Position numbers and translations under genes: made by a program. The notes below the pieces were generated by a model. The model searched no databases and was not told the origin of the DNA. It worked only from the letters and a program-made list of their open reading frames with translations. A stretch of 64,000 nt of DNA from an uncultured Planctomycetia bacterium (GTDB lineage Bacteria; Planctomycetota; MHYJ01; WSZJ01; CAZWCX01), in assembly GCA_964632945.1 (NCBI GenBank), contig CAZWCX010000005.1, forward strand, positions 9,305 through 73,304, given 5' to 3'. Every line of letters begins with the position of its first letter. The first letter of the stretch is position 1. Shown here piece after piece: positions 1-36,958 of this stretch.

Positions 1-6
1 CTGCGC

Positions 7-459
7 CTACCCCCCGGGCCCGGCCTCGGGCGGCAGGTATTCGAAGTACTCCTTCAGGTCCTGGATCTCGTGGTCCTTCTGTTCGAGCAGGCTGACGAGC
101 ACGTCCCGGAAACTGACTACGCCGGAAAGCCGGCCCGCATCGGTGATGGGGAGGTGTCGGCAACCAGTCTCGCGCATGATCCGGACTGCGTGGCGGACCG
201 TGTCCTCGCCCTCCACGCAGACGGGGTCCCGGGTCATCACGTCCCCCACGCGCGTGTGGGCGGCGTCCCGGCCTTCGGCGATCACCCGGAAGAGCGCATC
301 GCGCTCCGTGAAGATCCCCACGAGGTCCGCCCCCACCAGCACCGGAAGGGCGCCGATGCCGCGCTGCCTCATCAGGCTGGCGGCCTGCGCGACGGTGGCG
401 GTCGGGGTCGTGTGGGCCACGGTCTGGCCCTGAATGACCTTGTTCAGTTTCCGTTGCAT
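7..459 (-). CDS. CBS-domain pair protein
   Basis: C-terminal part of ORF 7..1125. ATG at 459 preceded by SD AGGAGG. Two CBS repeats (GIGALPVL..LVGIFTERD; CRHLPIT..LSGVVSFRD). Confidence 0.9.
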   Translation of the reverse strand: MQRKLNKVIQGQTVAHTTPTATVAQAASLMRQRGIGALPVLVGADLVGIFTERDALFRVIAEGRDAAHTRVGDVMTRDPVCVEGEDTVRHAVRIMRETGCRHLPITDAGRLSGVVSFRDVLVSLLEQKDHEIQDLKEYFEYLPPEAGPGG

Positions 460-710
460 ATACCCCTCCTGGATTGCGGTCGGGGCCCCGGGACGGAATC
501 GGGGGGCCGCCAACCTGGATTGGACCACACCGGATAGGGTCCGTTTCATCATCGCGTCGGCGGGTGGGCGCGGCGGAGGGAGGCTTGCGCTAGTAGTCTC
601 AGAATACCATCCGGACCGCGCGAGGTCAAGGCGGCTTCCGGGGCCCTCCGGCGGTCGTGCGCGCCGGGGGGAGCCCGCCGCGCGAACCCGGGCGGGACCC
701 GCGGAGAGGC

Positions 711-1097
711 TCAGGGCCACTCCTCGGCCGCCAGCCCGCCCTCGCACCAGGCCGTCCAATCGAAGCGTCGAGGATCGGCGATCAACTCGAGCGATCGCTG
801 CGCCCAGCGGGCGAGTCGCGGATCCTCGAGCTGGCGGGCGCGCTCGAGATGAGGCGAGAGGATCCGGCGCGCCGCCTCGCCACCCTCGAAACGGACGGCG
901 TCGCCCGTCAGCAGGTAGAGGCACTTCAAAAAAAAGATCCGATTCGGACAGGCGGGGTCGGCGGCCAACCGGAGGAAGAGGTCGGCGCGATCGAGGTCCG
1001 TGATCGTCACCGCCCACTCCTGGACCGGTTCGACGGCGTCCGGGTCGTAGGCCCACTCCACGAGCTCGTCGGCGGTGGGGTTGAAGGGATCGTTCAC
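711..1097 (-). CDS. Hypothetical protein (128 aa)
   Basis: ORF with normal globular composition (NPTADELVEWAYDPD...CPNRIFFLKCLYLLTGD), unlike the Arg/Pro-rich shadow frames. Function not recognised. Confidence 0.7.
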   Translation of the reverse strand: MNDPFNPTADELVEWAYDPDAVEPVQEWAVTITDLDRADLFLRLAADPACPNRIFFLKCLYLLTGDAVRFEGGEAARRILSPHLERARQLEDPRLARWAQRSLELIADPRRFDWTAWCEGGLAAEEWP

Positions 1098-3004: not shown

Positions 3005-3123
3005 GACGGTCCTCGCGACAGCCAGAGGGCATTGTGCCGGACCGTGACCGGTCCGTCAATCCGCGACGCCCGGACCCGGAAATTCGTTTCCGATCGAACC
3101 GCGGATGTGGGAAAATTCACGCC

Positions 3124-6100
3124 ATGTCCAGCACGCCTCCCGTCGACCCCCCCCAGGCCGAGACGCGTGCGCCCGGCGCGACCAGAACGGGCCCGCCTTC
3201 CGGCACAGATTTTCCGTTCGGCCGATTCCGGTTGCTTGAACGACTGGGCGCCGGGGGCATGGGGATCGTCCATCGTGCCTGGGATCCGAAACTCGGACGG
3301 CACGTCGCGCTCAAGCGCCTGCGCGTCGACGGGGACTCCGGCATCGAAGTCGCCCGTTTCCTGCGGGAGGCGCGGGTGGCGGCGCGGCTGCGTCATCCCG
3401 GCATCGTCCAGGTTCACGACTCCCTGGAGGTCGACGGTGCGCCGGCGATCGTCATGGAGTGGGTGCAAGGCTGCACCCTGGAGACGTGGCTGGCCGGGAA
3501 TCCGGCCGTGGGGGAGGAATCCCTGCGCCGGCGCGTCGGGTTGCTGCTCGGGATTGCCGAGGCCGTGGGGCACGCTCATGGGGAGGGGGTGATCCACCGG
3601 GATCTGAAGCCGGCGAACGTGCTGATCGACGATCAGGGTCGGCCGCGCGTTGCGGATTTCGGGTTGGCGAGGCGCCTCCCTTTCGCCGGGGGGATGGAGT
3701 CCGCGCCCGCGGCGGCCTTGACCGAGGCCGCCACGGTCCTGGGGACTCCCGCGTACATGAGCCCGGAGCAGGCGCGGGGCGAGTCCGACGGCATCGGTCC
3801 CCGCTCCGACGTCTGGTCCCTCGGCGTGATGCTCTACGAGATGATCACGGGACGGCCGCCGTTCCAACGGGAGAACGGTTGGCGTACGCTCGAAGCCGTG
3901 GCACGGGAGGAGGTCACGCCCCCGTCCGCGACGACCCCCCGGGTATCGCCCCCGCTCGAGGCGATTTGCCTGCGCGCCCTGCACCGGGACCCGGAGCGGC
4001 GCTACAGGGACGGCAAAGCGTTCGCCGACGATCTGCGTCGTTGGCTTGTGGGGGAGTCGGTGCAGGCGGGGCCGGGGGGGCGCGAGTACCGGGCGCGCGT
4101 GTGGATCCAGACCCGACGTCCTGCGCTGGCGGGCGCCCTGGTCGTCGCGATGGCGATCGTCGGCCTGACGGTCTGGGGAATCGCAGGTTCCGGACGACGG
4201 ATGCAGGAGGCGCTCCAGGTCGAAGCGGCGGAGTCGGTGACGTCCTTCGAGGACCGCGTACGTTCGATCGAGATGACCGTCGACGCACGCCGCGACCTTG
4301 CGCGACAGCCGCTGGCGCTGCTCGATCGCTGGATCGCCGAGGGCCCGGACGCCGGGGTCGGCCATGCGTGGCGCGGGCAGGTGCGCCTTCTGCTGGGCGA
4401 CGAAGCGGGCGCCGCGGCCGACTTCGAGCAGGCCTGCCGCCGCTCGCCGGAACGCTGGGAGCCGTGGTGGGTGCGGGGATTCTGGCGCATGGAGCAGTAC
4501 CTGTCGCTCCGCGGTCTGTCTGCATTCCGGATGACGGAGACGGGCGTCGAATCCGACCCCGCGCGCGCGGAGAGCGGCGAGGAAGCCGGCCTGCGGGTCT
4601 CCGCCCTGGCCGACCTCGGGCGCATGGTCCGCTGCTCCGCTGCCGGCGCCGCGGGGAACGACGAGCGGTTGAAGATGGCGCAGGCGCTGGCCGCCCTCGG
4701 TCAGGGGGATGCGGCGGGCTACAGGGAGGCGCTCACACGGCTCGAAGGGTTGAATCTGCCGCGGTCGCACAGGATTCGCGGTCGGGCACTGCATCAGTTG
4801 GGTCGATTCGAAGAGGCGGAAGAAGCCTACACCCGGGTGCTGGAGCGATGGCCCGAGGATGCGGACGCCTGGCGGTCCCGCGCCGTCAGCCGGAATGTTG
4901 CCGGGGTCCTGGCGGCGCAACGCGGGACCGAGCCGCAGGCCCTCCTGGAACGCGCGGAGGCCGACTTCGGCGAGGCCATCCGGTGCGAGCCCGACGAGTC
5001 GGCGGCGTATCTGGGTCGCGCCAACCTCCGGACCTGGCGGGTCAAGGTCCGAATCGACCGCGCGGAAGATCCGACCGGGGCGTTGCAGGAAGCGGAGGAA
5101 GATCTCTTCGAGGCGGGACGCCGGGGAGCCCCGGAGTGGCGCGTGGTCCGGCTGCAAGGTCAGCTTCTGCTCCTCGCGGCCGAATGGGACCGAATCCAGC
5201 ACCGCTCGGCTCGCACCCACATCGAAAGGGCGATCGAGGAGTTCGAGCGCGCGGCGCGGAGCGGTCCCGAGCCCGGGATCGACCGCCTCCTCCAGTCGCG
5301 TGCCTACGTGGCGCTGGCCGCCGATGAGATCGCGGCGCGGCAGGATCCACGCGCGACGTTCGACAAGGCCCTGGCCGCCGTCGACGAAGCCTGCGCGCTC
5401 CTCCCGACCCGCGGCGAGCCCTTGGCGGAACGCGGCGAGATGCGCTTCTCGATGGCGATCGCCGCGGTCCTGTTCGGGCGCGATCCGGTCCCCTTCCTGG
5501 GGCCGGCGATGGAGGATCTCGCCGCCGCGCTGAAGATCCGGCCCGGAGCCGTAAAGACGCTGCGCATCCGCGCCCGTGCGCGCGCCCTTCGCGCCCGGTA
5601 CGAGGACCGGGAACGCGCCGACCTCCACCGCGAAGTCCGCGCCAGCCTGGAAGACCTGGATGCCGTCCTCGCGGTGCTGCCTTCGGATGCCGATCTCCTG
5701 CAGGATCGGGCGCAGATGTGTCTGCGGCTCGGCGAACTCGAAGCATCGTTCGGCGGGGATCCGCGTCCGCACTACCGGTCTGGCGTAACCGCCATCGAGC
5801 GGTTGGAAGGGGCTCCGGTCCGCCAGCCCGGACCGCTGCTCGCGACGCTCGGAGCGCTGCGCTGGCGGCTTGCGCAGGCGGAAGCGGTGCGAGGGGGCGA
5901 TCCCGGCGCTGGATGGACCCGGGCCGTGGCGGACTTGCTGACGGCCCGCGGCCGTTTCGGGTTCGAGACCGGTCACACGCTGGGCCGACTTTACCGGACC
6001 CTCGGTCGATGGGGCGAGGCGGCAGGGGAGTTCGAGCGATTCGGCGGGACCCGGGGCGGATCCCCTGAAGTGGGGCGGGTCCTGGCGGAGGAGTGCCGCG

Positions 6101-6531
6101 CGCTCGACTGGGCCGGCGGCCGGGGATGGGCGGCAGCCTGGCGGCGCGGGGACGAGGCCTTGGCCGGGGGGGACCCCGCGGCGGCCTGGCGGGAGTACGA
6201 GACGGCCGCCGCCGGTCTCTTCGAAGACGTCGGCGGGCTTCCGGAAGCGGAACGGGATCCGCGCCAACGGCCCACGCCGCTGCGGGTCGCCTCGACGGCC
6301 GTGTCGCTTGGCCTGGCTCGCGCCGCAGCGGTGCTGGCCCACGGGGGCGAGGCTTCCGGCGAACCCGCCCGGGCGTCTGATCCGGCCGCACGAGAGCAAT
6401 GGCTCGATCGGATGCTCGAGCATTTGCAGGATGCCTGCGAGCAGGGCGCCGAGATCGCGATGTGGGGCGACGATCCGGTGTTCGCGCCGTTCGCGGAGGA
6501 CCCCCGGTTCCGAAATCTGCGGAGGCGCTGA
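3124..6531 (+). CDS. Ser/Thr protein kinase (Hanks type) with TM segment and TPR-like C-terminus
   Basis: GAGGMG, VALK, HRDLKPANVL, DFG and GTPAYMSPEQ motifs; TM LAGALVVAMAIVGLTVWGIA; helical repeats. Start placed at ATG 3124. Confidence 0.93.
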   Translation: MSSTPPVDPPQAETRAPGATRTGPPSGTDFPFGRFRLLERLGAGGMGIVHRAWDPKLGRHVALKRLRVDGDSGIEVARFLREARVAARLRHPGIVQVHDSLEVDGAPAIVMEWVQGCTLETWLAGNPAVGEESLRRRVGLLLGIAEAVGHAHGEGVIHRDLKPANVLIDDQGRPRVADFGLARRLPFAGGMESAPAAALTEAATVLGTPAYMSPEQARGESDGIGPRSDVWSLGVMLYEMITGRPPFQRENGWRTLEAVAREEVTPPSATTPRVSPPLEAICLRALHRDPERRYRDGKAFADDLRRWLVGESVQAGPGGREYRARVWIQTRRPALAGALVVAMAIVGLTVWGIAGSGRRMQEALQVEAAESVTSFEDRVRSIEMTVDARRDLARQPLALLDRWIAEGPDAGVGHAWRGQVRLLLGDEAGAAADFEQACRRSPERWEPWWVRGFWRMEQYLSLRGLSAFRMTETGVESDPARAESGEEAGLRVSALADLGRMVRCSAAGAAGNDERLKMAQALAALGQGDAAGYREALTRLEGLNLPRSHRIRGRALHQLGRFEEAEEAYTRVLERWPEDADAWRSRAVSRNVAGVLAAQRGTEPQALLERAEADFGEAIRCEPDESAAYLGRANLRTWRVKVRIDRAEDPTGALQEAEEDLFEAGRRGAPEWRVVRLQGQLLLLAAEWDRIQHRSARTHIERAIEEFERAARSGPEPGIDRLLQSRAYVALAADEIAARQDPRATFDKALAAVDEACALLPTRGEPLAERGEMRFSMAIAAVLFGRDPVPFLGPAMEDLAAALKIRPGAVKTLRIRARARALRARYEDRERADLHREVRASLEDLDAVLAVLPSDADLLQDRAQMCLRLGELEASFGGDPRPHYRSGVTAIERLEGAPVRQPGPLLATLGALRWRLAQAEAVRGGDPGAGWTRAVADLLTARGRFGFETGHTLGRLYRTLGRWGEAAGEFERFGGTRGGSPEVGRVLAEECRALDWAGGRGWAAAWRRGDEALAGGDPAAAWREYETAAAGLFEDVGGLPEAERDPRQRPTPLRVASTAVSLGLARAAAVLAHGGEASGEPARASDPAAREQWLDRMLEHLQDACEQGAEIAMWGDDPVFAPFAEDPRFRNLRRR

Positions 6532-6532
6532 A

Positions 6533-9500
6533 ATGGAGCCGGTCTGCGAGACTTGCGAAACCCCGTTGCACGCAGGCGTGTGCCCGCGATGCGAGCCGGC
6601 GCCGGAGGAGGTGGCGGCAACGGTTCGTCGGAATGGGGCGCCTCCCCCCAAGGGTCCGGCGGAGCCATCGGCTCCTTCCTTCGCCTTCGCCGAAACGCAA
6701 CTCCGAGGCGCCGGTTCGCCGCCCGCCACGAATCCCCAGCGGTCGGACGTCGAGGCCACGGCGCTCGACCCTCCCGGCTTGGAAACCTGCCTCGCTTCCG
6801 GCCCTGATTCCGGAGCGGCCGATGCGCAGACCCGGTTCCCGTCCGGGGCGTCCTGGTTGCCCGCTACCCCCGCCCCGCAAGGCAAGAAGTTCGGCCGGTA
6901 CGTGTTGCTCTCGGTCCTCGGGCACGGCACCATGGGGGTGGTGTATCGGGCCTTCGATTCCCAGCTCGGTCGTATGGTGGCGCTCAAGCAGTTGCTGAGG
7001 GAGGAAAATCCGGAGCTCGAAGAGCGTTTCCAGCGGGAGGCGCGCCTCTCGGCCCGACTCCGCCACCCGAATGTCGTACCGGTCCATGACGTCGGCCGCG
7101 AGGAGGGTCGACTCTATCTCGCCATGGAGTTCGTCGAGGGGCGCACCCTCGCGGCGTGGCTGGGGGAGACTCGGGACCTGAAGCGGGCGGGGGATCCGCG
7201 CGGGACGGAGCGGTTGCGCCGCGAAGTCGAGGTCCTGGGGATGGTGGCGGATGCGCTCGGCCATGCGCACGCCCTGGGAGTGGTGCATCGGGACCTCAAG
7301 CCGGGAAACATCCTGCTGGACCGCGAGGGGCGTCCCTATGTCACCGACTTCGGCCTTGCCATGGACGTCGTTCCGTGGAACCGCGAGGAAGGGCCCGGGG
7401 CGGAGCGCATGACCCGCTCCGGACAACTGCTCGGGACGCCGGCCTACATGAGCCCGGAACAGGCTCATGCCCAGTCGGGCACGATTGGTCCGCGCGCCGA
7501 CGTGTGGGCCCTCGGGGTGATCCTCTACGAGGTCCTGACCGGACACCTCCCCTTCGGCGGGAAGACCGCCTGGGACATGATGGCGGCCGTGAAGACGAGG
7601 GAGCCCGCGCCGCCTCGGCAGTTGCGCCCCGAGGTTCCCGGCGACCTCGAGCGGGTCTGCATGGCGGCACTGGTCAAGGAGCCCTCGCGGAGGACCCCGA
7701 CCGCCACGGCCTTCGCCGAGGATCTGCGGCGGTGGTTGAAGGGCGAACCGGTTACGGCATCTCCGCCCGGGCTGGCGTATCGCGGGGCCCGCTGGGCCCG
7801 ACGCCGGATCGCGTGGCTGACGGGCGCAACCGTCCTGGTCCTGTTGGTGGGGTCGGCGATCGTCTCGGTTCACCTCGAGCATCTCCGCGAGGCCGAACGG
7901 CGCCGCTCCGCCCTCGCCCAAGGAGCGGCCGCCGTCCTGCGATTCCAGCGCGAGGTCATGCGCACGCCGATGTCGCAGGACGCCCGCCTGGAACTGGCGC
8001 GGCAGCCCCTCGATGCCTTGTCCAGGATCCCTCCGGGCGATCCGCTGCATGGTTGTGCACTGGCCTGGCGGGCGTGGGTGACACTCCTGTTGGAGGGGCG
8101 GGACGAGACGGTCCGGGAGTTCGACCGGGCCTGCGCCCTGTCGCCCGAGGCCGCCGTTCCATGGCGCCTGCGCGGGCTGTTCCGGCTGGACACCTATGCC
8201 GGCCTGCGCGGGTTGCCGATGAGACGCCTCGGCCCGCTCGGGCTGGACTCCCCCGTCGTGGGGCCCGAGACCGACGAACTGCGCGAACTGCGGGAGGGCG
8301 GTCTTGCCGACCTGGCCCGCGCGCAGGCGCTCGATCCGCGGGACTCGATCGAGGAGATGAACATGGCCCGTGCCCTCGCGGCCGGTTACTCCGGTCGTCC
8401 GGGCGGATGGGAGGAAGCGTTGCGGCTCATGGGCGACGCCGTGTCGGTGCGAACCCACCGCCTGCGCGGGCTCGCGTTCTTCCAGCTCCGTCGCTTTCCG
8501 GAGGCCGTGGTGGAGTTCGGGCACGCGCTGGCCGAGTGGCCCCAGGATCCCGATCTGCATTTTCACCTCGCGCAGTCCCTTCAAGCGACGGCCATCGAGG
8601 CGATGTTGCGCGGCGAGGATCCGGAGCCGCTGTACGGGGAGGCGATCGAGGGGTACGAACGGGCCTCTCGACTGAATTCGAACAAGAGTGCGACCTACCT
8701 TGGACAGCAGGCGGTCGCCTGGATGGAGCTCGGGCTCTCGCGGGTCGCGCGGGGGATTGATCCCCGCGAGGTCTATCGCAAGTCGATCGTCACCCTGCGG
8801 CCCCTGGCGCGTCCGTCGTCGGTGTCCCCCTTTGCCTCGTTCGGGCGGCTCCAATTGGGATTGGTCCTTCGATTGCTCGGCGAAGCGGAGGGCGATTGCG
8901 GCGGGGACCCGCGACCACACTTCCTCGAGGCCATCGCGTCGCTCGACGAGGAGATCGCTCTTTTCCCCGACAACCTGGACGCGCGCAACGCCCGCGGGAA
9001 CGCCTGGCAACGACAGGGGGAGTACACGCGCGACGGGGAGTCGGAAGCCGCCTTCGGGCGCGCCCTGCAGGATTTCGATGCCGCCGTGCGCATGGCGCCC
9101 GACTCCCATCAATCCCTGACGAACCGGGCCTCGTTGCGAGTCAGCATGGCCCGCGCCGCGACCGATCGGGGCGTGGACGTGCGTCCCTGGCTCGAGGCGG
9201 CGATCCGCGACGCCGAGGCGGCCACGAAGACGAGCCCCGGGTCCTTCGGCGGATTTCAGAATCGCGCGGCCGCGCGCCTGATGTCGGCGAAGGAGGCGCT
9301 GCGCCGGGCCGAGGAGCCGTCCGCGCTCCTCGACGGGGCGGCGGAAGACTTCGACGCTGTCCTCGCGTTGAATCCGCGCCACCGGAGCGCCCGTCGCGGC
9401 CGCGGACAAGCGCGATTGCTGAAGGCCTGGCTGCTCCTCAGTCGCAACGGCGACGCAGCGGCGGCGCTGGCGTCCTCTCTGGCGGACCTGGAAGCCGCGG

Positions 9501-10096
9501 CCCGGGGCGAGGATCCCGACGCGACGCCGACATGGATCCAGGCATTGCGCGCCGCGGGCCGGGTCCGCGAGGCGATCCGGGTCGTGGAGTCCTACCGGGA
9601 CGCGCGCGGCGACCGGGCCGCCTGGGCCCGCGGTCGCTTGAACGCCCTGGAGCCGCTGGTTCGATACGAAGGCGAGCCGTGGGTCGCCCTGCATCTGGCC
9701 GGCCGCGACATGGCCTACGACGGGATCCGCCTCGTCTCGAGCGCGCTGCTCGAGCGGGCGCTCGCGGACGAGGCGCGCGTTCGAGAGCGGCTCTCGCCCG
9801 CCGACCTCGGCACGCGCGCCGCCGATCCGGGCCTGCGCGTCGTGCAGGCGGGGGATCGATACAATCTGGCCTACGCCGCCGTTCTGGATGCGGCCGGGAA
9901 GACGGATCCCCGGCTCCCGGCGGTGCGGGAGGTCACGGAGGTGGAGCGCAGCGCGCACGTCGACCGCGCCTTCGCGTTGCTGACGGAGGCCGTGCGCGCG
10001 TTTCCGGCGTACCGCAGCGACATCGCCGACGATCCGTATCTGGAACCGTTGCGAGGCGACCCGCGATTTGCGGCTCTGCTCGCCGAGGGAGAGTGA
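6533..10096 (+). CDS. Ser/Thr protein kinase with TM segment and TPR-like C-terminus
   Basis: ATG 1 nt after the kinase 1 stop. N-terminal CxxC-x8-CxxC; GHGTMG, HRDLKPGNIL, DFG, GTPAYMSPEQ; TM; TPRs. Confidence 0.93.
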   Translation: MEPVCETCETPLHAGVCPRCEPAPEEVAATVRRNGAPPPKGPAEPSAPSFAFAETQLRGAGSPPATNPQRSDVEATALDPPGLETCLASGPDSGAADAQTRFPSGASWLPATPAPQGKKFGRYVLLSVLGHGTMGVVYRAFDSQLGRMVALKQLLREENPELEERFQREARLSARLRHPNVVPVHDVGREEGRLYLAMEFVEGRTLAAWLGETRDLKRAGDPRGTERLRREVEVLGMVADALGHAHALGVVHRDLKPGNILLDREGRPYVTDFGLAMDVVPWNREEGPGAERMTRSGQLLGTPAYMSPEQAHAQSGTIGPRADVWALGVILYEVLTGHLPFGGKTAWDMMAAVKTREPAPPRQLRPEVPGDLERVCMAALVKEPSRRTPTATAFAEDLRRWLKGEPVTASPPGLAYRGARWARRRIAWLTGATVLVLLVGSAIVSVHLEHLREAERRRSALAQGAAAVLRFQREVMRTPMSQDARLELARQPLDALSRIPPGDPLHGCALAWRAWVTLLLEGRDETVREFDRACALSPEAAVPWRLRGLFRLDTYAGLRGLPMRRLGPLGLDSPVVGPETDELRELREGGLADLARAQALDPRDSIEEMNMARALAAGYSGRPGGWEEALRLMGDAVSVRTHRLRGLAFFQLRRFPEAVVEFGHALAEWPQDPDLHFHLAQSLQATAIEAMLRGEDPEPLYGEAIEGYERASRLNSNKSATYLGQQAVAWMELGLSRVARGIDPREVYRKSIVTLRPLARPSSVSPFASFGRLQLGLVLRLLGEAEGDCGGDPRPHFLEAIASLDEEIALFPDNLDARNARGNAWQRQGEYTRDGESEAAFGRALQDFDAAVRMAPDSHQSLTNRASLRVSMARAATDRGVDVRPWLEAAIRDAEAATKTSPGSFGGFQNRAAARLMSAKEALRRAEEPSALLDGAAEDFDAVLALNPRHRSARRGRGQARLLKAWLLLSRNGDAAAALASSLADLEAAARGEDPDATPTWIQALRAAGRVREAIRVVESYRDARGDRAAWARGRLNALEPLVRYEGEPWVALHLAGRDMAYDGIRLVSSALLERALADEARVRERLSPADLGTRAADPGLRVVQAGDRYNLAYAAVLDAAGKTDPRLPAVREVTEVERSAHVDRAFALLTEAVRAFPAYRSDIADDPYLEPLRGDPRFAALLAEGE

Positions 10097-10112: not shown

Positions 10113-11819
10113 TTGAGTCCGATTCGCACCCTGATCGGAGGGGCGCTGTTGGCGCTGCTGTCCGTGTCGCGCTCTTCCGGGGACCCCGCCCCGGCCGGGC
10201 CGGAAACGATCTTCGTGAATGCCGACATCTACACGCTCGATCCGGCGGGATCGCGGGCGGAGGCGATGGCCGTCGCCGGCGGGCGCATCGTCCGAATCGG
10301 CTCGCGAACGGCCGTCGAAGCCGGGCGCGGTCCCGACACGCGGGTGATCGACCTCGGCGGGCGCACGGTGCTGCCCGGCTTGATCGACGCCCATGCGCAC
10401 CTGGCGTCGCTGGGGGCGCTCGCCTCGGGGCGTCTGGACTTTTCGGACGCGCGGAGTTTCGCGGAGGTGGTGGCGGCGGTGAAAGAGGCGGCCGGTCGCG
10501 CCCCCGCCGGGCAATGGATCCTGGGTCGCCAGTGGGACCAGGCCGACTGGGGTCAGGAGGAGTTTCCGACGCACGCGGCCCTCTCCGAGGCGGTGCCCGG
10601 ACATCCGGTCTGGCTGGCGCGCGTGGACGGCCACGCTGCGATCGCCAATCGCAAGGCGATGGAGCTCGCGGGCGTCACCCGCGACACGCCGAACCCGGTC
10701 GGCGGGGAAGTGCTGCGCGACGCCGCGGGCGAACCGACGGGCGTCTTCGTGGACAACGCGCTCGACCTGGTGGAACGGGCGATCCCCGCCGAGCGGCGCG
10801 GGGCCTGGCGGGAACTTCTGCTGGCCGCGCAGGAGCGGTGCCTTGCCGCCGGTCTGACCGGCGTCCATGACGCGGGGATGTCGCCGGCGGGGATCGACGC
10901 CCTGAACGCCCTCGCCGGGGAGGGGCGCTGGAAGTTGCGCGCCTACGCCATGGTGGCCGGAGACGAGTCCGGACTGGCCTGGGCCCGGGCCCATTCGCCG
11001 CAGATGGGCGCCCCCGGGGATCGGGTGGTCGTCCGCTGTATCAAGCTCTTCATCGACGGCGCCCTCGGATCGCGGGGCGCCTGGCTGCTTGAGCCGTACA
11101 GCGACCGGCCGACCGGGACCGACGGATCGCCGTATGCGGGACTCCCGGTGACCGAACCGGATCAGGTCTACCGCGTGGCCCGGTGGGCGGCCGGCTCGGG
11201 ATGGCAGGTCGCGACCCATGCGATCGGCGATCGCGGCGTTCGCGAGGTCCTGAACGCGTACGAACGCGTCCTCGCGGAGGTCGGCGGCGGCCGCGATCTC
11301 CGCTTCCGGATCGAGCATTTCCAGTGCGCCGACCCGGCCGACATCGCGCGCCTCGCGCCCTTGGGAGTGATCGCGTCCATGCAGCCCACCCACGCCACGA
11401 GCGACATGCGGTGGGCCGAGGACCGCGTCGGACCCGCGCGCCTGCGCGGTTGCTACGCCTGGGCGTCGGTCCTGCGCAGCGGCGCCGTTCTCGCCTTCGG
11501 TTCGGACTTCCCCGTGGAATCGGAGAATCCGTTCTGGGGCCTCCATGCCGCGGTCACCCGCCAGGACGGGGACGGCCGGCCCGCCGGGGGGTGGCGGATC
11601 GAGGAGGCGCTCTCTCGCGAGCAAGCGCTGCGCGCCTTTACCCTGGGCGCGGCGAGATCCGCCTTTGCGGAAGCCGATCTCGGCAGCCTCGAGCCCGGAA
11701 AGTGGGCGGATTTCGTCGTGCTCGACCGAGACCCGATGACCTGCCCTCCGGCCGAGATTCGCGCGACGGGCTGTCTGCGCACCGTGATCGCGGGCGAAAC
11801 CGTGTTCGAGCGGCGGTGA
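10113..11819 (+). CDS. Secreted metal-dependent amidohydrolase (amidohydrolase_3/YtcJ-like)
   Basis: PGLIDAHAH, IKLFIDGALGSRGA, THAIGDRG, RIEHFQ and FGSDFPV motifs. Signal peptide. TTG start at 10113 after GGAGG. Confidence 0.92.
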   Translation: MSPIRTLIGGALLALLSVSRSSGDPAPAGPETIFVNADIYTLDPAGSRAEAMAVAGGRIVRIGSRTAVEAGRGPDTRVIDLGGRTVLPGLIDAHAHLASLGALASGRLDFSDARSFAEVVAAVKEAAGRAPAGQWILGRQWDQADWGQEEFPTHAALSEAVPGHPVWLARVDGHAAIANRKAMELAGVTRDTPNPVGGEVLRDAAGEPTGVFVDNALDLVERAIPAERRGAWRELLLAAQERCLAAGLTGVHDAGMSPAGIDALNALAGEGRWKLRAYAMVAGDESGLAWARAHSPQMGAPGDRVVVRCIKLFIDGALGSRGAWLLEPYSDRPTGTDGSPYAGLPVTEPDQVYRVARWAAGSGWQVATHAIGDRGVREVLNAYERVLAEVGGGRDLRFRIEHFQCADPADIARLAPLGVIASMQPTHATSDMRWAEDRVGPARLRGCYAWASVLRSGAVLAFGSDFPVESENPFWGLHAAVTRQDGDGRPAGGWRIEEALSREQALRAFTLGAARSAFAEADLGSLEPGKWADFVVLDRDPMTCPPAEIRATGCLRTVIAGETVFERR

Positions 11820-11831
11820 GCCGCGGACGGG

Positions 11832-13397
11832 TCAGAACCCGTAGGTGAGCGAAAAGCCGAACACGTTGCGGTCGAAGTCGAAGTCCTTCACGTTCGACTC
11901 CGCGTCGGTGAGCGTGTAGTAGAGGCTCGCGTCGAGGCCCGGGACGATCGGGCGCGAGAGGTTGATGCTGTAGATCTGGGTGTTGTTCACGCGCCGGTCC
12001 ACGAACCCGTCCCGGAAGTTGGGATGGTGATACGTCGTGTGCACGTGCTGATACGACGCGGTGGCGCGTACGTTCAGCGGCAGGACGTACGACACCGCCC
12101 CCTGGATCGCGTCGGAGTCGTAGTCGAAGTCGGATCCGTCGGTGTGTGAATTCTCGTGCGAGTACGAGAGACGGAACACCAGGGTCGTTTCCGGGATGAA
12201 GAAGTCCTGCGTGAACTGAACCCCGTCGATCGCCCCGTCGAGGTCCTCGGTGTGGAAGACGTTGTCATCGTAGAAGGTTTCCCATCGGAAATTGTACGAA
12301 ACCCGGCTCGCGGTCCAGGACGTCGCCCGCCAGGTCACGAAACCGCCCAGGGAGACCGCATTGTTCAGCTGGACCTGGTCCAGCCACAAGTGGGACCAGG
12401 CGCTGTCCACGCCGACCGAGACCCGGTCGAAGATGCGGTACTCCGGGGTCATGCTGATCCGGTAGAGGAAGATGTCCCGTTCGGAGAGCTGGTCGTTCGT
12501 GTGCAGCAGAGTGAACAGACGGCTGGTCAGGGTGAACCGGTCGGTCGCCTGCCAGCGATACCCGCCGTCGATGGAGAAGGTGCCGCGGAAGGCGTCCAGG
12601 CGGTCGGCGAAGTCCGGGTTGCGCGGCTTGGGTTGCTTCCCCGCGGTCGGAACATTGGTGTCGTACTCGAGGCCGCTGGTGAGGTTGACCCACCAGGGCT
12701 TTCCAGGCGCCCCGGCAACCCGGGTCGGCTGCTTCAACAGGTCGATCGTGCCGGAGATGTTCACCCGCTCCGCGTCGGTGAAATCCTGGGAGAGCGCCCC
12801 CTGGAGGCGGGAAACCGCCTCGTCGCCGCGATTCAGGCCGGTCAGGGCGGCAGCCGTGAGCAATTCGACGCGCAGTCGGGTCTCGGGATCCGGCGTGACC
12901 TTCGCCAGTTCGTCGAGAGCATCCTGGAAGCGCTCGGCGGCGAGCAAGGCCTCGGCGATCGCGATGCGGCTGTAGGCATCCCCGGGGGCGAGTCGGTGGT
13001 ACTCCTCGTAGGCGGCGATCGCCTCCGGGTAACGCTCCGCGACGAAGAACGCGCGGCCGCGTTCGAACGCCACGACGTCGAGGTTGAGCCCCGCGCGGAC
13101 CGCGCGATCGATCAGTTCGAGCGCCTCTTCCGGACGGCCGGTGCGGGACCGGCACTTGGCGAGCAGGAAGATGTAGAGCGGATGGTTGGGGGCGCCGGCG
13201 ACCAGGGCTTCGTAAAGCACCGCGGCGGCGGCGTAGTCCCGTGACTGATAGACCCGGGCGGCCTCGAGAGCGGGGGCGTCTTCGCCGGCAGGAGTCGGGG
13301 ATCCGGCCGCGCCTGCGGGTTCCTGGGCGTAGGGGGAAGTGGCCCAAAGGGCAAGCATGAGCAGCGCGGCGAGCGCCGCGCGCGCGTGGATCTTCAC
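11832..13397 (-). CDS. TPR plus outer-membrane beta-barrel protein (Slam/DUF560-like architecture)
   Basis: Signal peptide, several TPRs, then an alternating beta-strand region starting SGLEYDTNV and ending in the OMP signature FGFSLTYGF. Confidence 0.82.
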   Translation of the reverse strand: MKIHARAALAALLMLALWATSPYAQEPAGAAGSPTPAGEDAPALEAARVYQSRDYAAAAVLYEALVAGAPNHPLYIFLLAKCRSRTGRPEEALELIDRAVRAGLNLDVVAFERGRAFFVAERYPEAIAAYEEYHRLAPGDAYSRIAIAEALLAAERFQDALDELAKVTPDPETRLRVELLTAAALTGLNRGDEAVSRLQGALSQDFTDAERVNISGTIDLLKQPTRVAGAPGKPWWVNLTSGLEYDTNVPTAGKQPKPRNPDFADRLDAFRGTFSIDGGYRWQATDRFTLTSRLFTLLHTNDQLSERDIFLYRISMTPEYRIFDRVSVGVDSAWSHLWLDQVQLNNAVSLGGFVTWRATSWTASRVSYNFRWETFYDDNVFHTEDLDGAIDGVQFTQDFFIPETTLVFRLSYSHENSHTDGSDFDYDSDAIQGAVSYVLPLNVRATASYQHVHTTYHHPNFRDGFVDRRVNNTQIYSINLSRPIVPGLDASLYYTLTDAESNVKDFDFDRNVFGFSLTYGF

Positions 13398-13429
13398 CAG
13401 ACTTCCCTCCGTGCCGCTACCCGCGGCAG

Positions 13430-13457
13430 GTCCCCCCGCGCCGCTGCGCGAGGGGAC
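13430..13457 (-). terminator. Intergenic GC-rich hairpin (attenuator or mRNA stabiliser)
   Basis: GTCCCC-C-CGCGC-CGCT-GCGCG-A-GGGGAC between the small secreted gene and the beta-barrel gene. No clear U-tract. Confidence 0.4.
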
Positions 13458-13474
13458 TCAGCTCTTGACCGGCG

Positions 13475-13966
13475 CTAGTGGGTGCTCTTCGCCGCGTCGA
13501 GCGTCGCCCAATTCGCGTCGCTCGCCTGCTTGCTCGCGTCGTTCGCGGCGGGCGCCGGGCCCTTCGTCGTGCGGGTCACCGCCTGCGCAGCCTGCTGGGC
13601 GAGCAACCGCGCCTGCACTCGGGATTGCGCGGACGCCTGTCCGGCCAGTCGGGCCGCCAGGCTCGCCTGCGTGCGACCGATCTCCTCGACGTTCAGCGTC
13701 GAACTTCCGAGATTCGCCGACACGTTCGCGGTGGCGTCCGCCGCCGTGCTGATGCCGCCGCTCGGCACCGGAACGGGCGCATCCACCGGCCCCGCCACCG
13801 CGGGAGCGATCATCATTGCCGAAGCGGCCATCTGCATCTGTTGGGGAGGATTCGGATCCGGGCACCCCGGGTCCACGCCCGGATTTCAGGTAGGCAGGGC
13901 GAGGGCGCCACAGGGGACGAAGGTCAGGAGCGCGAGCAGCGCGAGGGAACCAATCGCCGTCTTCAT
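13475..13966 (-). CDS. Secreted Pro/Ala-rich protein with an in-frame TGA at codon 27 (candidate UGA-recoded or selenoprotein, 163 aa)
   Basis: SD GGGAGGT, ATG 13966, signal peptide MKTAIGSLALLALLTFVPCGALA, then LPT, TGA (13886..13888), then NPGVDPGCPDP continuing in frame into ORF 13475..13876. Confidence 0.7.
13856..13885 (-). other. SECIS-like hairpin immediately 3' of the in-frame TGA
   Basis: A-ATCCGGGC-GTGGACCCGGGGT-GCCCGGAT, an 8-bp perfect stem. An alternative upper stem GGACC-CGG-GGT(G)CC starts 11 nt after the TGA. Folded by eye only. Confidence 0.45.
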
Positions 13967-14033
13967 GGGGAATTTACCTCCCGATGCGGGTAGCTTGGGC
14001 CACAGGTTTGCCGCCTCCTCCCGTCCCATTCTC

Positions 14034-14057
14034 ATGAATGATACAATCGCCATTCAT
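14034..14057. promoter_or_regulatory. Operator-like inverted repeat
   Basis: ATGAATG-N10-CATTCAT overlapping the -10/+1 region of the promoter for the 13966 gene. Confidence 0.45.
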
Positions 14058-14083
14058 TATACCCCGGTCGCCGGGAAACTCAA
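14056..14083 (-). promoter_or_regulatory. sigma70-type promoter for the 13966 gene and beta-barrel gene
   Basis: Minus strand TTGAGT-N16-TATAAT in an AT-rich intergenic stretch. Confidence 0.6.
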
Positions 14084-14154
14084 GGCCAAAGTCCGAATCG
14101 CGCATAATACGAATCAATGGATTGCAACCTAATCTCGCAAAGCGACTTGTGGTT

Positions 14155-17100
14155 CTACTTCGCCATCCTTTCCAGGAACTTCTTCCAGCGCGGGTCCCCG
14201 TGCAACGGGGCGAGGTCGGTGTCTTTTTCGGTCTGATCCCGGGTTCGCGCGCTGGGGACGATTTTGCCCGAAGGATCCAGTTCCTTTCCCCAGTTCAATT
14301 CCGCCGCCTTCTCGAGTTCCTCGAAGGCCAGGTCCTGGTAGGCCTTTTTCTGGTCCGCGACGACGGCCGGCCGGGTCTGGGATCCGGCCTTGCCGGCGCT
14401 GGCCTGGGCGTAGACGCAGGCCAGGTTGTAGTGGGAAATCGCGATGCGGGATCCGTTCTCCCGCAGGATCTTCTCCACCTCTTCCGGCGTGCACAGCTTG
14501 AAGTATCCGTACAGTTTGTGGAACGCCTGCTCGAAGGCCTTTTCGGCCTCCAAGTACTTCTGGTTGAGGGTCAGGTCGTTGGCGGCGTCGAGGTCCCTGG
14601 TCAGGGTGGCGCGCTGGAGTCCGGCTTCCAGGCCTTCCATGAGCTTGTCGAGTTCGGGGTTCTCGTGGGGGACGACCGAGCGGTAGCGCCGGAACGCGTG
14701 CAGGGCCTTTTCGGCGCCGCCCATGGCGACGTAGAGCATGCCGAGGCTGTGCCAGGCGTCCTTCACGCCGCGATCGATGGCCTGCTGATAGTGTTCCTGG
14801 GCGCGCGCGTAGTACGAGGAGCGCAGGTCCTGGGGGATGTCGAACCAGAAGGCGAGGGTGCCTTCCGCATTGGCGAGCAGCTTGTAGAGTTCCGCGTCCT
14901 CGGGGAAGTCGGCGAGCGCGGCCTCGCAGTCGGCGCGCATGAGGTCGGCGTACTTGAACTTCTCCGCTTCCTTGCCGGCCTGCGAGTATTGTCCGCTCAT
15001 GCCGGCGAGGCAGCGGATGCGCATGCGGCGGGCGTCCTTGTCGGCGGGGCTGCGGTCGAGCGCGCGCGAGAGGTCGGCGAATCCCTTTTCGAAGGCGGGG
15101 GTGGAATCTTCCTTCTGATCGGCGAGGGCCTGGCCGAGGTCGTGCCAGGCGATGCCGCGGGCGCGGGTGAGGGCGGTGTCGTCCGCCTGCCGTGTCAAGA
15201 GCGTGTCGTACAGCGCGATGGCGCTCCGGTAGGATTCGCGCGCGTCCTTGCCGAGGGCACGCTGCGATTCCGCGACGCGGGACAGGAGGCCGGCGCGGCG
15301 GTCGAGGAGGTCGGCGTCGGCCGCCTGGGGATCGGCCTTGGCGAGTGCCGTGAGCGTTTCCTGCAGCGCCGGAAGCGCGGCCTCCACGCGACCCGCGGCC
15401 AGGTGGAGGTCGGCGAGATCGCTCCAGGAGCGGGCGCGGAAGAGCTCGACCGCTGGGGTCGAGGCGACGTCCTTCCAGGCGGCGAGGGTTTCCTCGAGCA
15501 GGGGGAGGGCGCGATCCGCCGGCGAGCGTCCGGTCTCGAAGAGGAGGCGCGCGGTCCAGCCGCGGACGATGGCGGTTCCCGGGAAGGCGGAGTCCCGCGC
15601 GACCAGGGCATCCAGTTCATCCCGGGTGCGCTGGAAGACGCGGTCGGCCCCTTCGGCGGCGGGTTCGGTGGTCAGGGCGCGTGCGAGGGCGGCGATGAAC
15701 CGGTCGCGGGGGACCGACGGGAGTGCGGAGTGGCGCTTGTGCAGTTCGGCGAGGGCGACGAGGGCTTCCTGGGGACGGCCGTCGTCGAGGGCGAGCCGCG
15801 CGAGCGCCCACCATCCCTCATCCGCGGACTCGACCGCCGCGACGGCCTTCTCGAGGGCCGCGCCGGCCGTGCCGTCGGCCCCGTCGCGGAGCGTCCCCGC
15901 GAGGGCGCGGGACAGTTCCAGGAGCGCGGGTTCCTCCGGCCACGCCTGGATCTTCGCCAGGTCCTCGGCGGCCTGGAGGCGCAGGGCGGTCAGCCCGGCG
16001 TCCGCCTTTTCCCATGCCGCGGAACCGGTCCAAGCCGCGAGCGGACCCGGCGGGTCCTCGAGGAGCCGTTCGGCCGTGACTGCGGCCAGCCGGGCCGCGG
16101 ACAGGCGCTCGGCGTACTCGTCCAGGCGCACGCGCGCGCGTTCGAGCCGGGCGGCGGGGAAGTCGGGATGGGCGGTGAGCAGGGCGTCGAGCGCTGCGAT
16201 CGCCGGGTCGCGTTGACCGGCCCACCGGAACGCCGACGCTTCCAGCACCCGGGCCTCGCGTAGATCCTCGATCTCGAGGGTGCCGCGGACGTGTTCGGTG
16301 ACCCGTTGCAGGCCGGTCGGGAGCGATCGCGCGTCCCCCTGACGCGAGGCCACGACCAGTTGGTTGAAGGCGGCTTGCGCGTCCGCCAGCCGTGCCAGGG
16401 CGCGGTTGCGGCGGTCTTCCGCCTCTTTTTTTCCGGTGAGCGCGGCCTCGAGATACGAGGCGCGCTGTTTGGCCCACTCGGTCTGCATGACGAAGTAGCC
16501 GGCCACCCCGAGCGCGGCCACGACGGCGGCGCCCAGCAGAATCGGGGTGCGCTTGCGCTTCACGAAGCGCTTGATCTTGTAGTCGATCGACGGCGCGTGG
16601 GCGAGGATGTGTTCGCCCTTCATGATGCGCCAGAGGTCTTCCGCCATCTCGCCGGCGGTGGGGTAGCGGCGGTCGGGGTCCTTTTCGAGCGCCTTCATGC
16701 ACAGGATGTCGAGCTGGCGGTCGAGGGTCGGCACGACCGCGCTGGGCTGGCGCGGATCCTCGTTGAGGACGCGCTGGATCAGCTGGATCGTTTCACCCCC
16801 TTCGAGCGGCGGTCGCCCGGTGAGCAATTCGTACAACATCGCCCCGAGGGCGTAGATGTCGCTGCGCGGGCCGACCTTGGACTGGTCGCCGGCCGCCTGC
16901 TCGGGCGCCATGTAGAGCACCGTGCCCAGCGTGGCGCCGGACTTGGTGAGGCGCTGTTCCGATTCGGTGAGGTCCTTGGCGAGCCCGAAGTCGGTGATGA
17001 CCGGCTTCTTCGTCTCGAGGTCGATGAGGATGTTCGCCGGCTTGATGTCGCGGTGGACGATCCCCTGGGAATGGGCGTAGTCCATCGCCCGGCAGATCTC

Positions 17101-18582
17101 GTTGGCGAGCTTGATCGCGACCGCGACCTCGAGCCCGCCCGGGCGGCCGTCGCGCGTGCGCGCGCCCTTGGGGAAGAGGTCGTCCTTGGGGGCGCGCACG
17201 ACCTTGTCGAGCGACTTTCCCTCGACGTAGTCCATGACGAGGTAGGGCGTATCGCCGTACATGCCGATGTCGTACACCGCGACGATGCCGGGGTGGCGCA
17301 GCTTCGCCGACGCCCGTCCTTCGCGCCAGAAGCGCGCCTGCAGGAGGTCGGGGTCGCCGCTGGCGGCCGTGAGGACCTTGATGGCGACATAGCGGTTGAG
17401 CTTGGGGTCGTACGCCTTGTAGACCGCGCCCATTCCCCCCTGGCCGAGCTTCTGGACCAGGTAGTAGTCGGCGAAGCGTTGCCCGGTGGCCTTGATCTGC
17501 TCGATCTGGCGAACGTCCAGGCCGGCGCGCGAGGCGATGGTGGTGACGCCGGCGCGGGAGCGGTCGACGCTGCTGTCCGCCTTCGAGGTCGCGGCGGGAG
17601 AGACCTTGGACACGGCCAGCTGGCTGTCTCCCTTCCGGCTGTCCCCCTTGGGAGAATGGCGGGTCTGGTCGACCGCGGAGCGCGGACCGCCCGCGACCGA
17701 GGGGGCGGCTGCGGCGGCGCCGGGGGGATCCATGACCGTGGGCTCATGGGGGGCGAGCCCCGCGGAGTCCGACTTCTCGGGGACCTTGGGCAGATTGGGC
17801 TGGAAGCCCGAGGGGCGGCGACCCGGCGGGATCGGGGGTGCGGGGGTCCGGGCGACCGGCATCTCCGGCATGGTCATGGCCGCCTGGAAGTTCGGGTCCT
17901 GCGGCGAGGGGTCGGCGGCGGAGGAATCTCCGTGCGGGATCCCGGGGGCCGACGCCGGGGGCGGGGCCCCGGGCATGCCCGGGAAGAGCGGCGCCCGGCG
18001 CGGCGGCGTTCCGCTCGCCGGCATCTCGGCCATCGTCATGGCCGCCTGGAAGTTCGGGTCCTGCGGCGAGGGGTCGGCGGTGGAGGAATCGCCGTGCGGA
18101 ATCCCGGGGGCCGAAGCCGGGGGCGGATCCATGGGCAATCCCGGGAAGAGCGGCGCGCGGCGCGGCGGCGTGCCCGTCGACGGCGCGTCGGCCATCGTCA
18201 TCGCCGCCTGGAAGTCGGGGTCGCCCGGGTCCCCGGCGCGCGCCGGATCCGGCGCGCCCGTCCCGCCGAGCGGACTCGCGTCCGACATCGTCATCGCATC
18301 CTGGAACCCCGGGTCGCTCATCCCCACCGCGAAGTCCGCGCCGGGATCGTCCCCCGCGCGCGGGCCGGGCGTGGGGCCCGAGGGCGCGAAGGAACGGGGC
18401 TTCACATCCGCTTCTTCGACCGTGCGCCCGGACGGCTCGCCTTCCTTCTCCGGGGAAGGCCCGCCGAACAGGACGTCGGGTACCGTCTCATCGGGCCGGC
18501 GTTCTCCCTTACCCGGCGGCGTCGGCGGACGCGTGCCGGCCTTCTCGTCCTTCTTCGGGTTCGTTTCGGATGGTTCCACCAT
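14155..18582 (-). CDS. Ser/Thr protein kinase with long Pro-rich repetitive N-terminus, TM segment and TPR C-terminus
   Basis: GQGGMG, VAIK, HRDIKPANIL, DFG and GTVLYMAPEQ motifs; TM ILLGAAVVAALGVAGYFVM; TPRs. Confidence 0.93.
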   Translation of the reverse strand: MVEPSETNPKKDEKAGTRPPTPPGKGERRPDETVPDVLFGGPSPEKEGEPSGRTVEEADVKPRSFAPSGPTPGPRAGDDPGADFAVGMSDPGFQDAMTMSDASPLGGTGAPDPARAGDPGDPDFQAAMTMADAPSTGTPPRRAPLFPGLPMDPPPASAPGIPHGDSSTADPSPQDPNFQAAMTMAEMPASGTPPRRAPLFPGMPGAPPPASAPGIPHGDSSAADPSPQDPNFQAAMTMPEMPVARTPAPPIPPGRRPSGFQPNLPKVPEKSDSAGLAPHEPTVMDPPGAAAAAPSVAGGPRSAVDQTRHSPKGDSRKGDSQLAVSKVSPAATSKADSSVDRSRAGVTTIASRAGLDVRQIEQIKATGQRFADYYLVQKLGQGGMGAVYKAYDPKLNRYVAIKVLTAASGDPDLLQARFWREGRASAKLRHPGIVAVYDIGMYGDTPYLVMDYVEGKSLDKVVRAPKDDLFPKGARTRDGRPGGLEVAVAIKLANEICRAMDYAHSQGIVHRDIKPANILIDLETKKPVITDFGLAKDLTESEQRLTKSGATLGTVLYMAPEQAAGDQSKVGPRSDIYALGAMLYELLTGRPPLEGGETIQLIQRVLNEDPRQPSAVVPTLDRQLDILCMKALEKDPDRRYPTAGEMAEDLWRIMKGEHILAHAPSIDYKIKRFVKRKRTPILLGAAVVAALGVAGYFVMQTEWAKQRASYLEAALTGKKEAEDRRNRALARLADAQAAFNQLVVASRQGDARSLPTGLQRVTEHVRGTLEIEDLREARVLEASAFRWAGQRDPAIAALDALLTAHPDFPAARLERARVRLDEYAERLSAARLAAVTAERLLEDPPGPLAAWTGSAAWEKADAGLTALRLQAAEDLAKIQAWPEEPALLELSRALAGTLRDGADGTAGAALEKAVAAVESADEGWWALARLALDDGRPQEALVALAELHKRHSALPSVPRDRFIAALARALTTEPAAEGADRVFQRTRDELDALVARDSAFPGTAIVRGWTARLLFETGRSPADRALPLLEETLAAWKDVASTPAVELFRARSWSDLADLHLAAGRVEAALPALQETLTALAKADPQAADADLLDRRAGLLSRVAESQRALGKDARESYRSAIALYDTLLTRQADDTALTRARGIAWHDLGQALADQKEDSTPAFEKGFADLSRALDRSPADKDARRMRIRCLAGMSGQYSQAGKEAEKFKYADLMRADCEAALADFPEDAELYKLLANAEGTLAFWFDIPQDLRSSYYARAQEHYQQAIDRGVKDAWHSLGMLYVAMGGAEKALHAFRRYRSVVPHENPELDKLMEGLEAGLQRATLTRDLDAANDLTLNQKYLEAEKAFEQAFHKLYGYFKLCTPEEVEKILRENGSRIAISHYNLACVYAQASAGKAGSQTRPAVVADQKKAYQDLAFEELEKAAELNWGKELDPSGKIVPSARTRDQTEKDTDLAPLHGDPRWKKFLERMAK
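17869..18315 (-). repeat. 162-nt (54-aa) tandem repeat inside the kinase N-terminus
   Basis: The motif CGCCTGGAAG recurs at 17881, 18043 and 18205 (period 162). DPxFQAAMTM occurs three times at that period, plus a degenerate DPGFQDAMTM copy near 18315. Confidence 0.85.
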
Positions 18583-36688: not shown

Positions 36689-36958
36689 ATGAAGCACCTG
36701 TTCACACTGGCCGCAGTGCTGGTGCTGGTCGGGACGCTCTTCGTGGGCGTGCCTGCCAGCGTGTTCGGGTGACCCCCGCCTGGGGCCCCGCCTCCCCCGG
36801 ACATTACGCCTGGCCCGGGTCCGGTTCCGGATCCGCCGGGGGGAGATGATGATGGTGGTGGTGACGACGATGACGGTGGTGGCGACGACGACGACGGCGG
36901 CCCGGAGACGCAGGTTGATGACGGGCCCGACGCTGGCGAAGAGCGCTATCTGATGTAA
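36689..36958 (+). CDS. Small secreted Pro/Gly/Asp-rich peptide with an in-frame TGA at codon 28, copy 2
   Basis: Identical by eye to 35499..35768. SD AAGGAG. TGA at 36770..36772. Confidence 0.7.

Follow-up and report, generated by a model that had tools for sequence, protein, structure and literature searches.

A candidate family of small exported selenocysteine proteins encoded upstream of a TPR/beta-barrel outer-membrane protein gene

In the fdhF element of E. coli, the loop nucleotides G23 and U24 contact SelB. The distance from the UGA to the apical loop in bacterial SECIS elements is 16–37 nt (PMC10778597), and a Cys homologue exists for almost all selenoprotein families (PMC9312934). 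Selenoproteins that leave the cytoplasm include the SAO proteins SaoB, SaoX and SaoC, which are exported or lipoprotein-type (Haft and Gwadz, bioRxiv 10.1101/2022.07.06.499078). Here we compare with these systems a small gene on the minus strand of a 64,000-nucleotide stretch of DNA from an uncultured Planctomycetia bacterium (the window), whose reading frame contains a TGA shortly after a predicted signal peptide. On comparative evidence we consider it likely that this gene belongs to a new, Sec-only family of small exported proteins, in which the UGA would be decoded by SelB, the Sec would form a selenylsulfide or a soft-metal site together with a Cys, and the product would work with, or be exported by, the outer-membrane protein encoded next to it.

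The small gene and its relatives

The features of the locus are collected in Table 1. Signal peptidase I is predicted to cut after A-L-A, with LPT beginning the mature chain. The residues after the TGA read NPGVDPG-C-PDPNPPQQMQ…, and 136 in-frame codons follow up to the TAG. GC content by codon position 3' of the TGA is 0.69/0.60/0.85, as in the real genes of the window, whose GC content is 70%, and the high GC3 runs uninterrupted across the TGA. At the promoter one site was seen, compared with 0.1 expected from shuffles. A preliminary description of this DNA had proposed the same layout (Shine-Dalgarno sequence, promoter, signal peptide, ALA cut and LPT-TGA-NPGVDPG-C), all of which agrees with the sequence; the hairpin that it placed directly after the TGA is also present, as CCGGG-GUG-CCCGG with a lower stem beneath it.

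Table 1. Features of the small gene and of its partner gene in the window, with the candidate hairpins of the relatives
Feature	Position	Strand	Description
Full read-through CDS	13475..13966	(-)	163 residues, proposed Sec at position 27, plus TAG stop
Shine-Dalgarno GGGAGG	13977..13982	(-)	10 nt 5' of ATG 13966
Sigma70-type promoter TTGAGT-16-TATAAT	14056..14083	(-)	10/12 matches
Predicted signal peptide MKTAIGSLALLALLTFVPCGALA	13898..13966	(-)	sequence features: K2, hydrophobic core, A-x-A
In-frame TGA, proposed selenocysteine codon	13886..13888	(-)	codon 27, +4 of mature protein
TGC, Cys35, putative U-x7-C partner of Sec27	13862..13864	(-)	sole Cys of mature protein
Candidate SECIS-type hairpin	13853..13875	(-)	lower stem UGGA/UCCG (4 pairs), upper stem CCGGG/CCCGG 13870-13858
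Apical loop GUG of this hairpin	13865-13863	(-)	+24 to +26, U of UGA = 1
TAG stop of read-through frame	13475-13477	(-)	
GC-rich hairpin, stem of 10-12 pairs	13432..13455	(-)	~20 nt 3' of stop, without U tract
Partner gene	11832..13397	(-)	521-aa protein: signal peptide, TPR, C-terminal beta-barrel ending in F
L001 candidate hairpin			stem GCGACCC/GGGUUGC, loop GUU at 24-26, -10.5 kcal/mol
L004 candidate hairpin			stem GGGC/GCCC, loop AGUU at 22-25
L011 candidate hairpin			stem CCUGGC/GCCAGG, loop AGUU at 22-25

A reassigned genetic code was rejected, since TGA is the ordinary stop codon for most genes in the window. A lipoprotein reading was likewise rejected, as the sequence FVPC is no lipobox and is also not conserved. 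No Lys or Arg occurs in the mature protein before R100, and the Sec-bearing tryptic peptide would be ~76 residues long; tryptic peptides of the read-through protein 3' of the TGA are TQASLAAR, LAGQASAQSR and LLAQQAAQAVTR.

Direct searches with the read-through protein gave no homologue in a word-indexed search of 5.8 billion clusters or in genome contigs and metagenome contigs, and an exhaustive phmmer search of 1.84 billion representatives returned just one low-complexity, compositional repeat match. Relatives were reached instead through synteny with the partner gene and then by profile search. The partner gene has two relatives, 57–59% identical, and both contigs (L001 and L004) carry a syntenic small gene immediately upstream of the relative and in the same orientation. 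In L001, GGAGG and an ATG precede MSLRWAALALIAILFVPPTASA/G-TGA-ESDPSDPLG-C-PQALQM… (cleavage motif ASA; the slash marks the predicted cut), and L004 encodes MKQVFALALGFVATLLGASQALA/VPT-TGA-DPTVMGS-C-PPP… (cleavage motif ALA). A profile built on these three sequences yielded a fourth gene, P0011 on contig L011, which reads MKHYLAVALGIVAALLGASQALA/QPT-TGA-NPAVPGS-C-QEV…. The final 22 nt of L011 are the initial 22 nt of L004, and as judged from their sequences the L011 and L004 genes are probably tandem paralogues that precede the barrel gene. The family at present comprises four genes from three organisms, two of the genes being these paralogues. The L001 sequence recurs unchanged in L002, L005 and L010, which brings the number of assemblies to four, and it is also present in two runs, X11 and X12.

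Using BLASTP, the window protein matched L004 with an E-value of 3e-9, in an alignment that runs across the TGA, and L001 with an E-value of 2e-4, while L001 and L004 matched each other at 2e-9; these pairwise E-values establish homology. GGAGG lies 6–9 nt before the ATG in all three relatives. In each of the four members the signal peptide has an A-x-A site, the in-frame TGA comes 2–4 residues after the cleavage site, and the mature protein contains exactly one Cys besides its one proposed Sec; the spacing is U-x7-C in three members and U-x9-C in L001. A Pro/Ala-rich stretch and a tail ending in S-T-H/D-(Y) are also common to the four. Since three homologous genes combine a signal peptide with TGA-x7/9-Cys, this arrangement is more than chance. 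Searches of Pfam, NCBIfam and PDB sequences with the small-protein family were empty, and an AlphaFold2 model of the small protein (pLDDT 44), with a low-confidence disordered N-terminal half and C-terminal helices, was unusable.

The idea of a decoded TGA with a Cys partner at the N-terminus of an exported protein, put forward in the preliminary description, gains strong comparative support from these relatives. The C-x7-C homologues that it had led us to expect did not appear: every member has TGA, and no Cys form in its place was found among 1.84 billion representatives, 5.8 billion clusters and the genome and metagenome contigs. Homologues that start at the internal GTG and lack a signal peptide, which the same description had considered, were not found either, all relatives having a signal peptide.

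Decoding of the in-frame TGA

Downstream of the TGA, all four genes contain a candidate hairpin with GU in a loop of 3–4 nt at +23 to +25 (dG −7.1 to −11.2), a loop geometry that resembles that of the E. coli fdhF SECIS. All four loops fall inside the 16–37 nt range given for bacterial elements (PMC10778597). The stem sequences are unlike among the four genes, and a compensatory double change, G-C to U-A, separates L004 from L011 at one pair. In L001, where two additional codons stand between the TGA and the Cys, the hairpin-to-UGA distance is unchanged, which argues for a constraint on the RNA and not on the protein alone. The family thus offers a compact example of a candidate SECIS whose spacing from the UGA is constant over a changing coding sequence.

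The criterion for a hairpin (at least 4 pairs, a loop of 3–6 nt, the G of GU at +22 to +25, and a dG no higher than −7) was set post hoc, and only 10 of the 1129 TGA trinucleotides in the window (0.9%) have such a hairpin, the site at 13886-13888 included; the TGA of the 35499 peptide, with which the preliminary description had compared this one, has no comparable hairpin. Compared with shuffled GC-rich sequence, the hairpins show no excess of stability (z +0.3 to +0.8 for the one in the window, and +0.3 to −0.6 for the hairpins of the family). RNAalifold found no consensus in a UGA-anchored ungapped alignment because the registers differ by 1–3 nt. The full-length minimum-free-energy (MFE) fold of L001 contains an ACC-loop hairpin (−9.5 kcal/mol alone, next to −10.5 for the GUU-loop hairpin) and a second small hairpin, and in L004 the MFE fold is another structure (−14.9), with the AGUU-loop hairpin suboptimal only (−14.0). 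The Rfam SECIS models matched nothing at gathering or E-value thresholds, and no tRNA-Sec was found within the window, where the only tRNA is a tRNA-Gln.

UGA is the leakiest stop codon, and the codon might therefore be read at low efficiency by a near-cognate or suppressor tRNA carrying Trp, Cys, Arg or Gly, with the hairpin merely slowing termination. The ordinary stability of the hairpins would fit such read-through. However, the TGA has been kept over a dS of 0.66 between L004 and L011 and of above 1 to L001 and to the window, which would not be expected for a residue that can be encoded directly. The presence of a GU loop at a SelB-type distance in each of the four genes and the pairing with one conserved Cys, which is typical of Sec chemistry, also argue against it. 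We regard read-through without Sec as highly improbable and infer that the inserted residue is Sec.

Selection on the frame beyond the TGA was assessed in L004 and L011. Over 180 aligned codons 3' of the TGA, dN was 0.21 and dS 0.66 (dN/dS 0.32); in the two shifted frames these nucleotides gave dN/dS values of 1.6–1.7, and the differences at codon positions 1, 2 and 3 numbered 34, 32 and 72. The dN/dS values and the codon-position pattern indicate that the region after the TGA is translated in the read-through frame and is under purifying selection. In a strain variant from a sludge metagenome (X7), whose coverage ends short of the TGA, all four listed SNPs lie at third codon positions of the read-through frame.

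If the TGA were instead a true stop, a conserved, signal-peptide-like leader ORF of 26 codons could regulate a separate ORF, beginning for example at GTG 13876, by coupling or re-initiation. Start codons 3' of the TGA are indeed present as a GTG four codons on in the window, GTG-ATG in L004 and TTG in L001, and gene callers annotate the downstream pieces only. None of these start codons is conserved, however, and L011 has none at all for ~26 codons, which makes a separate ORF 3' of the TGA unlikely. The internal candidates also lack a Shine-Dalgarno sequence, and the motif P-T-U-[ND]-P-x-V is kept in one frame on both sides of the TGA. Moreover, the product of a downstream ORF would be without an export signal, though its gene is paired with that of an outer-membrane protein, and we know of no role for a gene that encodes a signal peptide alone. 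We consider a leader ORF highly improbable.

Reads had been proposed as the means of telling TGA from TGC. The codon at 13888-13886 is invariably TGA, not TGC. This is so in the DNA contigs of runs X1 and X2 and in RNA contigs of two studies, namely the metatranscriptome contigs X3 and X4 and an RNA-seq contig, X5, of a second, later study; in X9, a run of the second study, 91% of the sampled words were present. Since the TGA is identical in DNA and RNA contigs, sequencing error and RNA editing are excluded.

The RNA contigs also define a transcript. Four RNA runs gave a single substantial contig across positions 10500–16500 of the window, at 13327–14059 and with a depth of 26–29; beside it the RNA depth is at most ~4.7, for the most part owing to short fragments of foreign contigs. 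The 5' ends lie at 14059 (X3), close to the predicted promoter, at 14006 (X4) and at 13988 (X5), and the transcript, of 0.6–0.73 kb, includes the signal-peptide part. The contigs stop 35–110 nt past the 3' hairpin, and the RNA depth falls ahead of the partner gene. The small gene is a discrete, abundant and strongly expressed transcript. A strong hairpin lies 3' of the stop codon in all four small genes, and we propose that the one in the window acts as an attenuator or 3' stabiliser; the hairpin and the drop in depth can be likened to those of operons in which the subunit is produced in large amounts and the exporter in small ones. That the gene is a pseudogene, or that the TGA stems from an error of sequencing or assembly, is barely credible, and nothing speaks for either beyond the in-frame stop codon itself. 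Against both stand the identical TGA in five runs of DNA and RNA, the same TGA in four assemblies of the L001-type gene, its conservation in four genes, the purifying selection downstream and the strong expression; the selection and the persistence of the TGA over this divergence rule out a pseudogene.

Gene callers miss or truncate the small gene everywhere, giving pieces 3' of the TGA only or a stub of 41 codons. As a result, neither annotations nor metaproteome databases show this strongly expressed protein.

The partner protein and a proposed mechanism

In all three organisms the partner gene lies directly downstream of the small gene on the same strand. The partner has a clear TPR domain, whose repeats cover approximately residues 41–222, and a predicted model (pLDDT 58.8) consists of TPR plus barrel. 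Its mature part has a single Cys, C82 (in LAKCRxRTG), which is invariant in the three orthologues. Matches to SlipAM (E 0.007–0.024) and to TPR_Slam (E 0.043) are both below Pfam gathering scores; these sub-threshold matches to Slam models are in the right order, but occur in one or two of the three orthologues. The best structural match of the model is to a BcsC-type TPR and barrel, with a low TM of 0.25. When the partner alignment was used as a query, no relative was found in genome contigs, and metagenome contigs gave the L001 organism again together with L006 and L007, which encode TPR-barrel proteins 24–25% identical to the partner and have no small gene; tblastn against plasmids gave no match. 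The architecture of the partner appears Slam/T11SS-like, a likeness that does not establish membership. The partner probably receives, anchors or exports the proposed selenoprotein.

In the Sec-containing reading that we favour, the strong promoter of the small gene would give an abundant, largely monocistronic mRNA ending at the 3' hairpin, with translation beginning at ATG 13966. The mRNA hairpin, with its GU-containing apical loop 20-odd nt downstream of the UGA, would recruit SelB·Sec-tRNASec, which would decode the UGA at codon 27 as selenocysteine. Removal of the Sec-pathway signal peptide after A-L-A would leave a mature LPT-U-NPGVDPG-C-P, in which Sec4 and Cys12 would be the only chalcogen residues; a Pro/Ala-rich linker and then a helical, Ala/Gln-rich body would follow Cys12. 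Between them, Sec4 and Cys12 would probably make either a selenylsulfide loop with redox activity or a hook that binds soft metal(loid)s. The small gene and the downstream TPR/beta-barrel gene form a conserved two-gene module.

A more specific version of this mechanism is possible but doubtful. The Sec-only small proteins might be dedicated substrates or partners of a Slam/BcsC-like TPR-barrel that delivers them to the surface, where the loop might exchange with the Cys in the TPR part of the partner; the system would carry out redox or metal(loid) chemistry at the outer membrane or outside the cell. The bacteria concerned come from bioreactors and groundwater.

If the main reading is correct, the family would be one of selenoproteins outside the thioredoxin-fold UxxC pattern, with Sec close to the N-terminus that processing leaves on an exported protein. 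Together with the lack of a known Cys form and the link to an outer-membrane TPR-barrel, these features would point to selenium chemistry in the cell envelope or beyond it, where, to our knowledge, few bacterial selenoproteins are known.

Comparison with known systems

With SelB/SECIS-dependent selenoproteins of the fdhF type, the family shares an in-frame UGA conserved among homologues (in all four members), a hairpin within the ORF 3' of the UGA with GU in its loop, and a nearby Cys that is a possible resolving partner. The family is similar to nothing in Pfam, NCBIfam or PDB and, as far as we have checked, appears to be absent from the 87 catalogued prokaryotic selenoprotein families (PMC9312934) and from the SAO families, the unnamed 'hypothetical' families of the catalogue lying outside the sequence comparison. 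Cys homologues are known for almost all of the catalogued families (PMC9312934), whereas none was found for this one. It also differs from the thioredoxin-fold selenoproteins with UxxC or CxxU, having U-x7/9-C and no Trx domain, and its low-confidence model (pLDDT 44) is helical or disordered.

The SAO selenoproteins are unrelated in sequence and share several other properties with the window family (bioRxiv 10.1101/2022.07.06.499078). Members of both groups are small, count as 'dark matter' and carry signal peptides, and gene callers cut both short at the UGA; both also have Cys/Sec pairs, for which metal binding has been proposed in SAO. The SAO pairs, however, are adjacent CU/CC motifs encoded in an ABC-transport locus of nine genes in anaerobic Firmicutes, whereas the module in the window has two genes, an outer-membrane barrel and a host of 70% GC. 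In Slam/type XI secretion, a protein made of TPR and a DUF560 barrel is like the partner in architecture and size and, as here, adjoins the gene for a small exported protein. Its cargo, in contrast, is often lipidated and has a C-terminal beta-barrel (TbpB-like), and the small protein has neither a lipobox nor such a domain. The Ni-hook of NiSOD (HCxxPC), an example of the N-terminal metal hooks made by leader cleavage, is an analogy only: it also places two chalcogen ligands within the first 12 residues, in a Pro-containing loop at a processed N-terminus, but the window protein has no sequence similarity to it and no His, and Sec would replace Cys.

Departures from the selenoprotein norm are therefore the spacing U-x7/9-C in place of UxxC, the position of the proposed Sec 2–4 residues from the cleavage site, a family for which no Cys form is known, and the coupling to an outer-membrane barrel. 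The decoding mechanism would be the known bacterial one, and it is the family of small proteins that appears to be new.

The small protein and its barrel partner

The mature part of the partner, the TPR and beta-barrel outer-membrane protein encoded downstream of the small gene, contains a single cysteine, C82, which lies in the motif LAKCRxRTG and is unchanged in both orthologues. The small protein itself has one predicted Sec and one Cys and no more. A thiol-selenol exchange between the two proteins, or a covalent tether of the small protein to its partner, is possible, though speculative. In the mature small protein (13478-13897, minus strand), the first Lys or Arg is R100, so the tryptic peptide bearing Sec is predicted to be about 76 residues long and would be invisible to standard shotgun proteomics. 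A strain from a sludge metagenome (run X7) differs from the window at four positions (13541, 13556, 13772 and 13775), each of which is the third base of a codon when read in the frame of the small gene.

Neighbours and relatives

Three very large Ser/Thr kinase genes flank the small-gene locus on both sides, and the end of the minus-strand one lies 70 nt from the promoter of the small gene, on its upstream side. On contig L007, the place of the small TGA gene, ahead of a TPR-barrel protein with 24% identity to the partner, is taken by a PEP-CTERM-type protein (…PEPGTALLLAFGLCGLAARARAGR), a hint that the exported proteins which this barrel family serves may differ. The organism of contig L004 appears to carry the small gene as two tandem paralogues, both with the TGA; the adjacency of L011 and L004 is based on contig ends that overlap by 22 nt. 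Both paralogues have about 60 additional C-terminal residues, absent from the window and L001 members.

Features in the window and on related contigs
Feature	Location	Strand	Source
Small gene	13475-13966	-	window
Partner	11832-13397	-	window
Ser/Thr kinases with TPR tails (1174, 1384, 1475 aa)	3007-10096; 14155-18582	+; -	window
Signal peptide-TGA-Pro/Asp-rich peptide gene, two copies	35499-35766; 36689-36956	+	window
Glu/Lys/Gln-rich frame, 651 codons	37191-39146	+	window
PEP-CTERM-type protein upstream of TPR-barrel relative	1-720		L007
Small-gene paralogues with TGA	236-862; 74-715		L011; L004

Other TGA-containing frames

The Glu/Lys/Gln-rich frame, which has no Pfam match, contains two in-frame TGAs (38640 and 38673) downstream of CINC. 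The 81 nt starting at 38640 form an unusually stable fold (z -2.0; 8 of 200 shuffles), and no hairpin by the GU-loop criterion (at least 4 pairs, a 3-6 nt loop, the G of GU at +22 to +25, dG <= -7) was found in this frame. By the same criterion, no SECIS-type hairpin was found 3' of the TGA in the duplicated peptide gene, where the following region is less structured than its shuffles (z +2). The two window copies of this gene show 100% identity over precisely the stretch that opens with ATG, includes the in-frame TGA and closes with TAA, whereas their flanks have diverged; since the identity is bounded by ATG and TAA and spans the TGA, the unit kept identical is the read-through CDS. This TGA may be decoded differently from that of the small gene.
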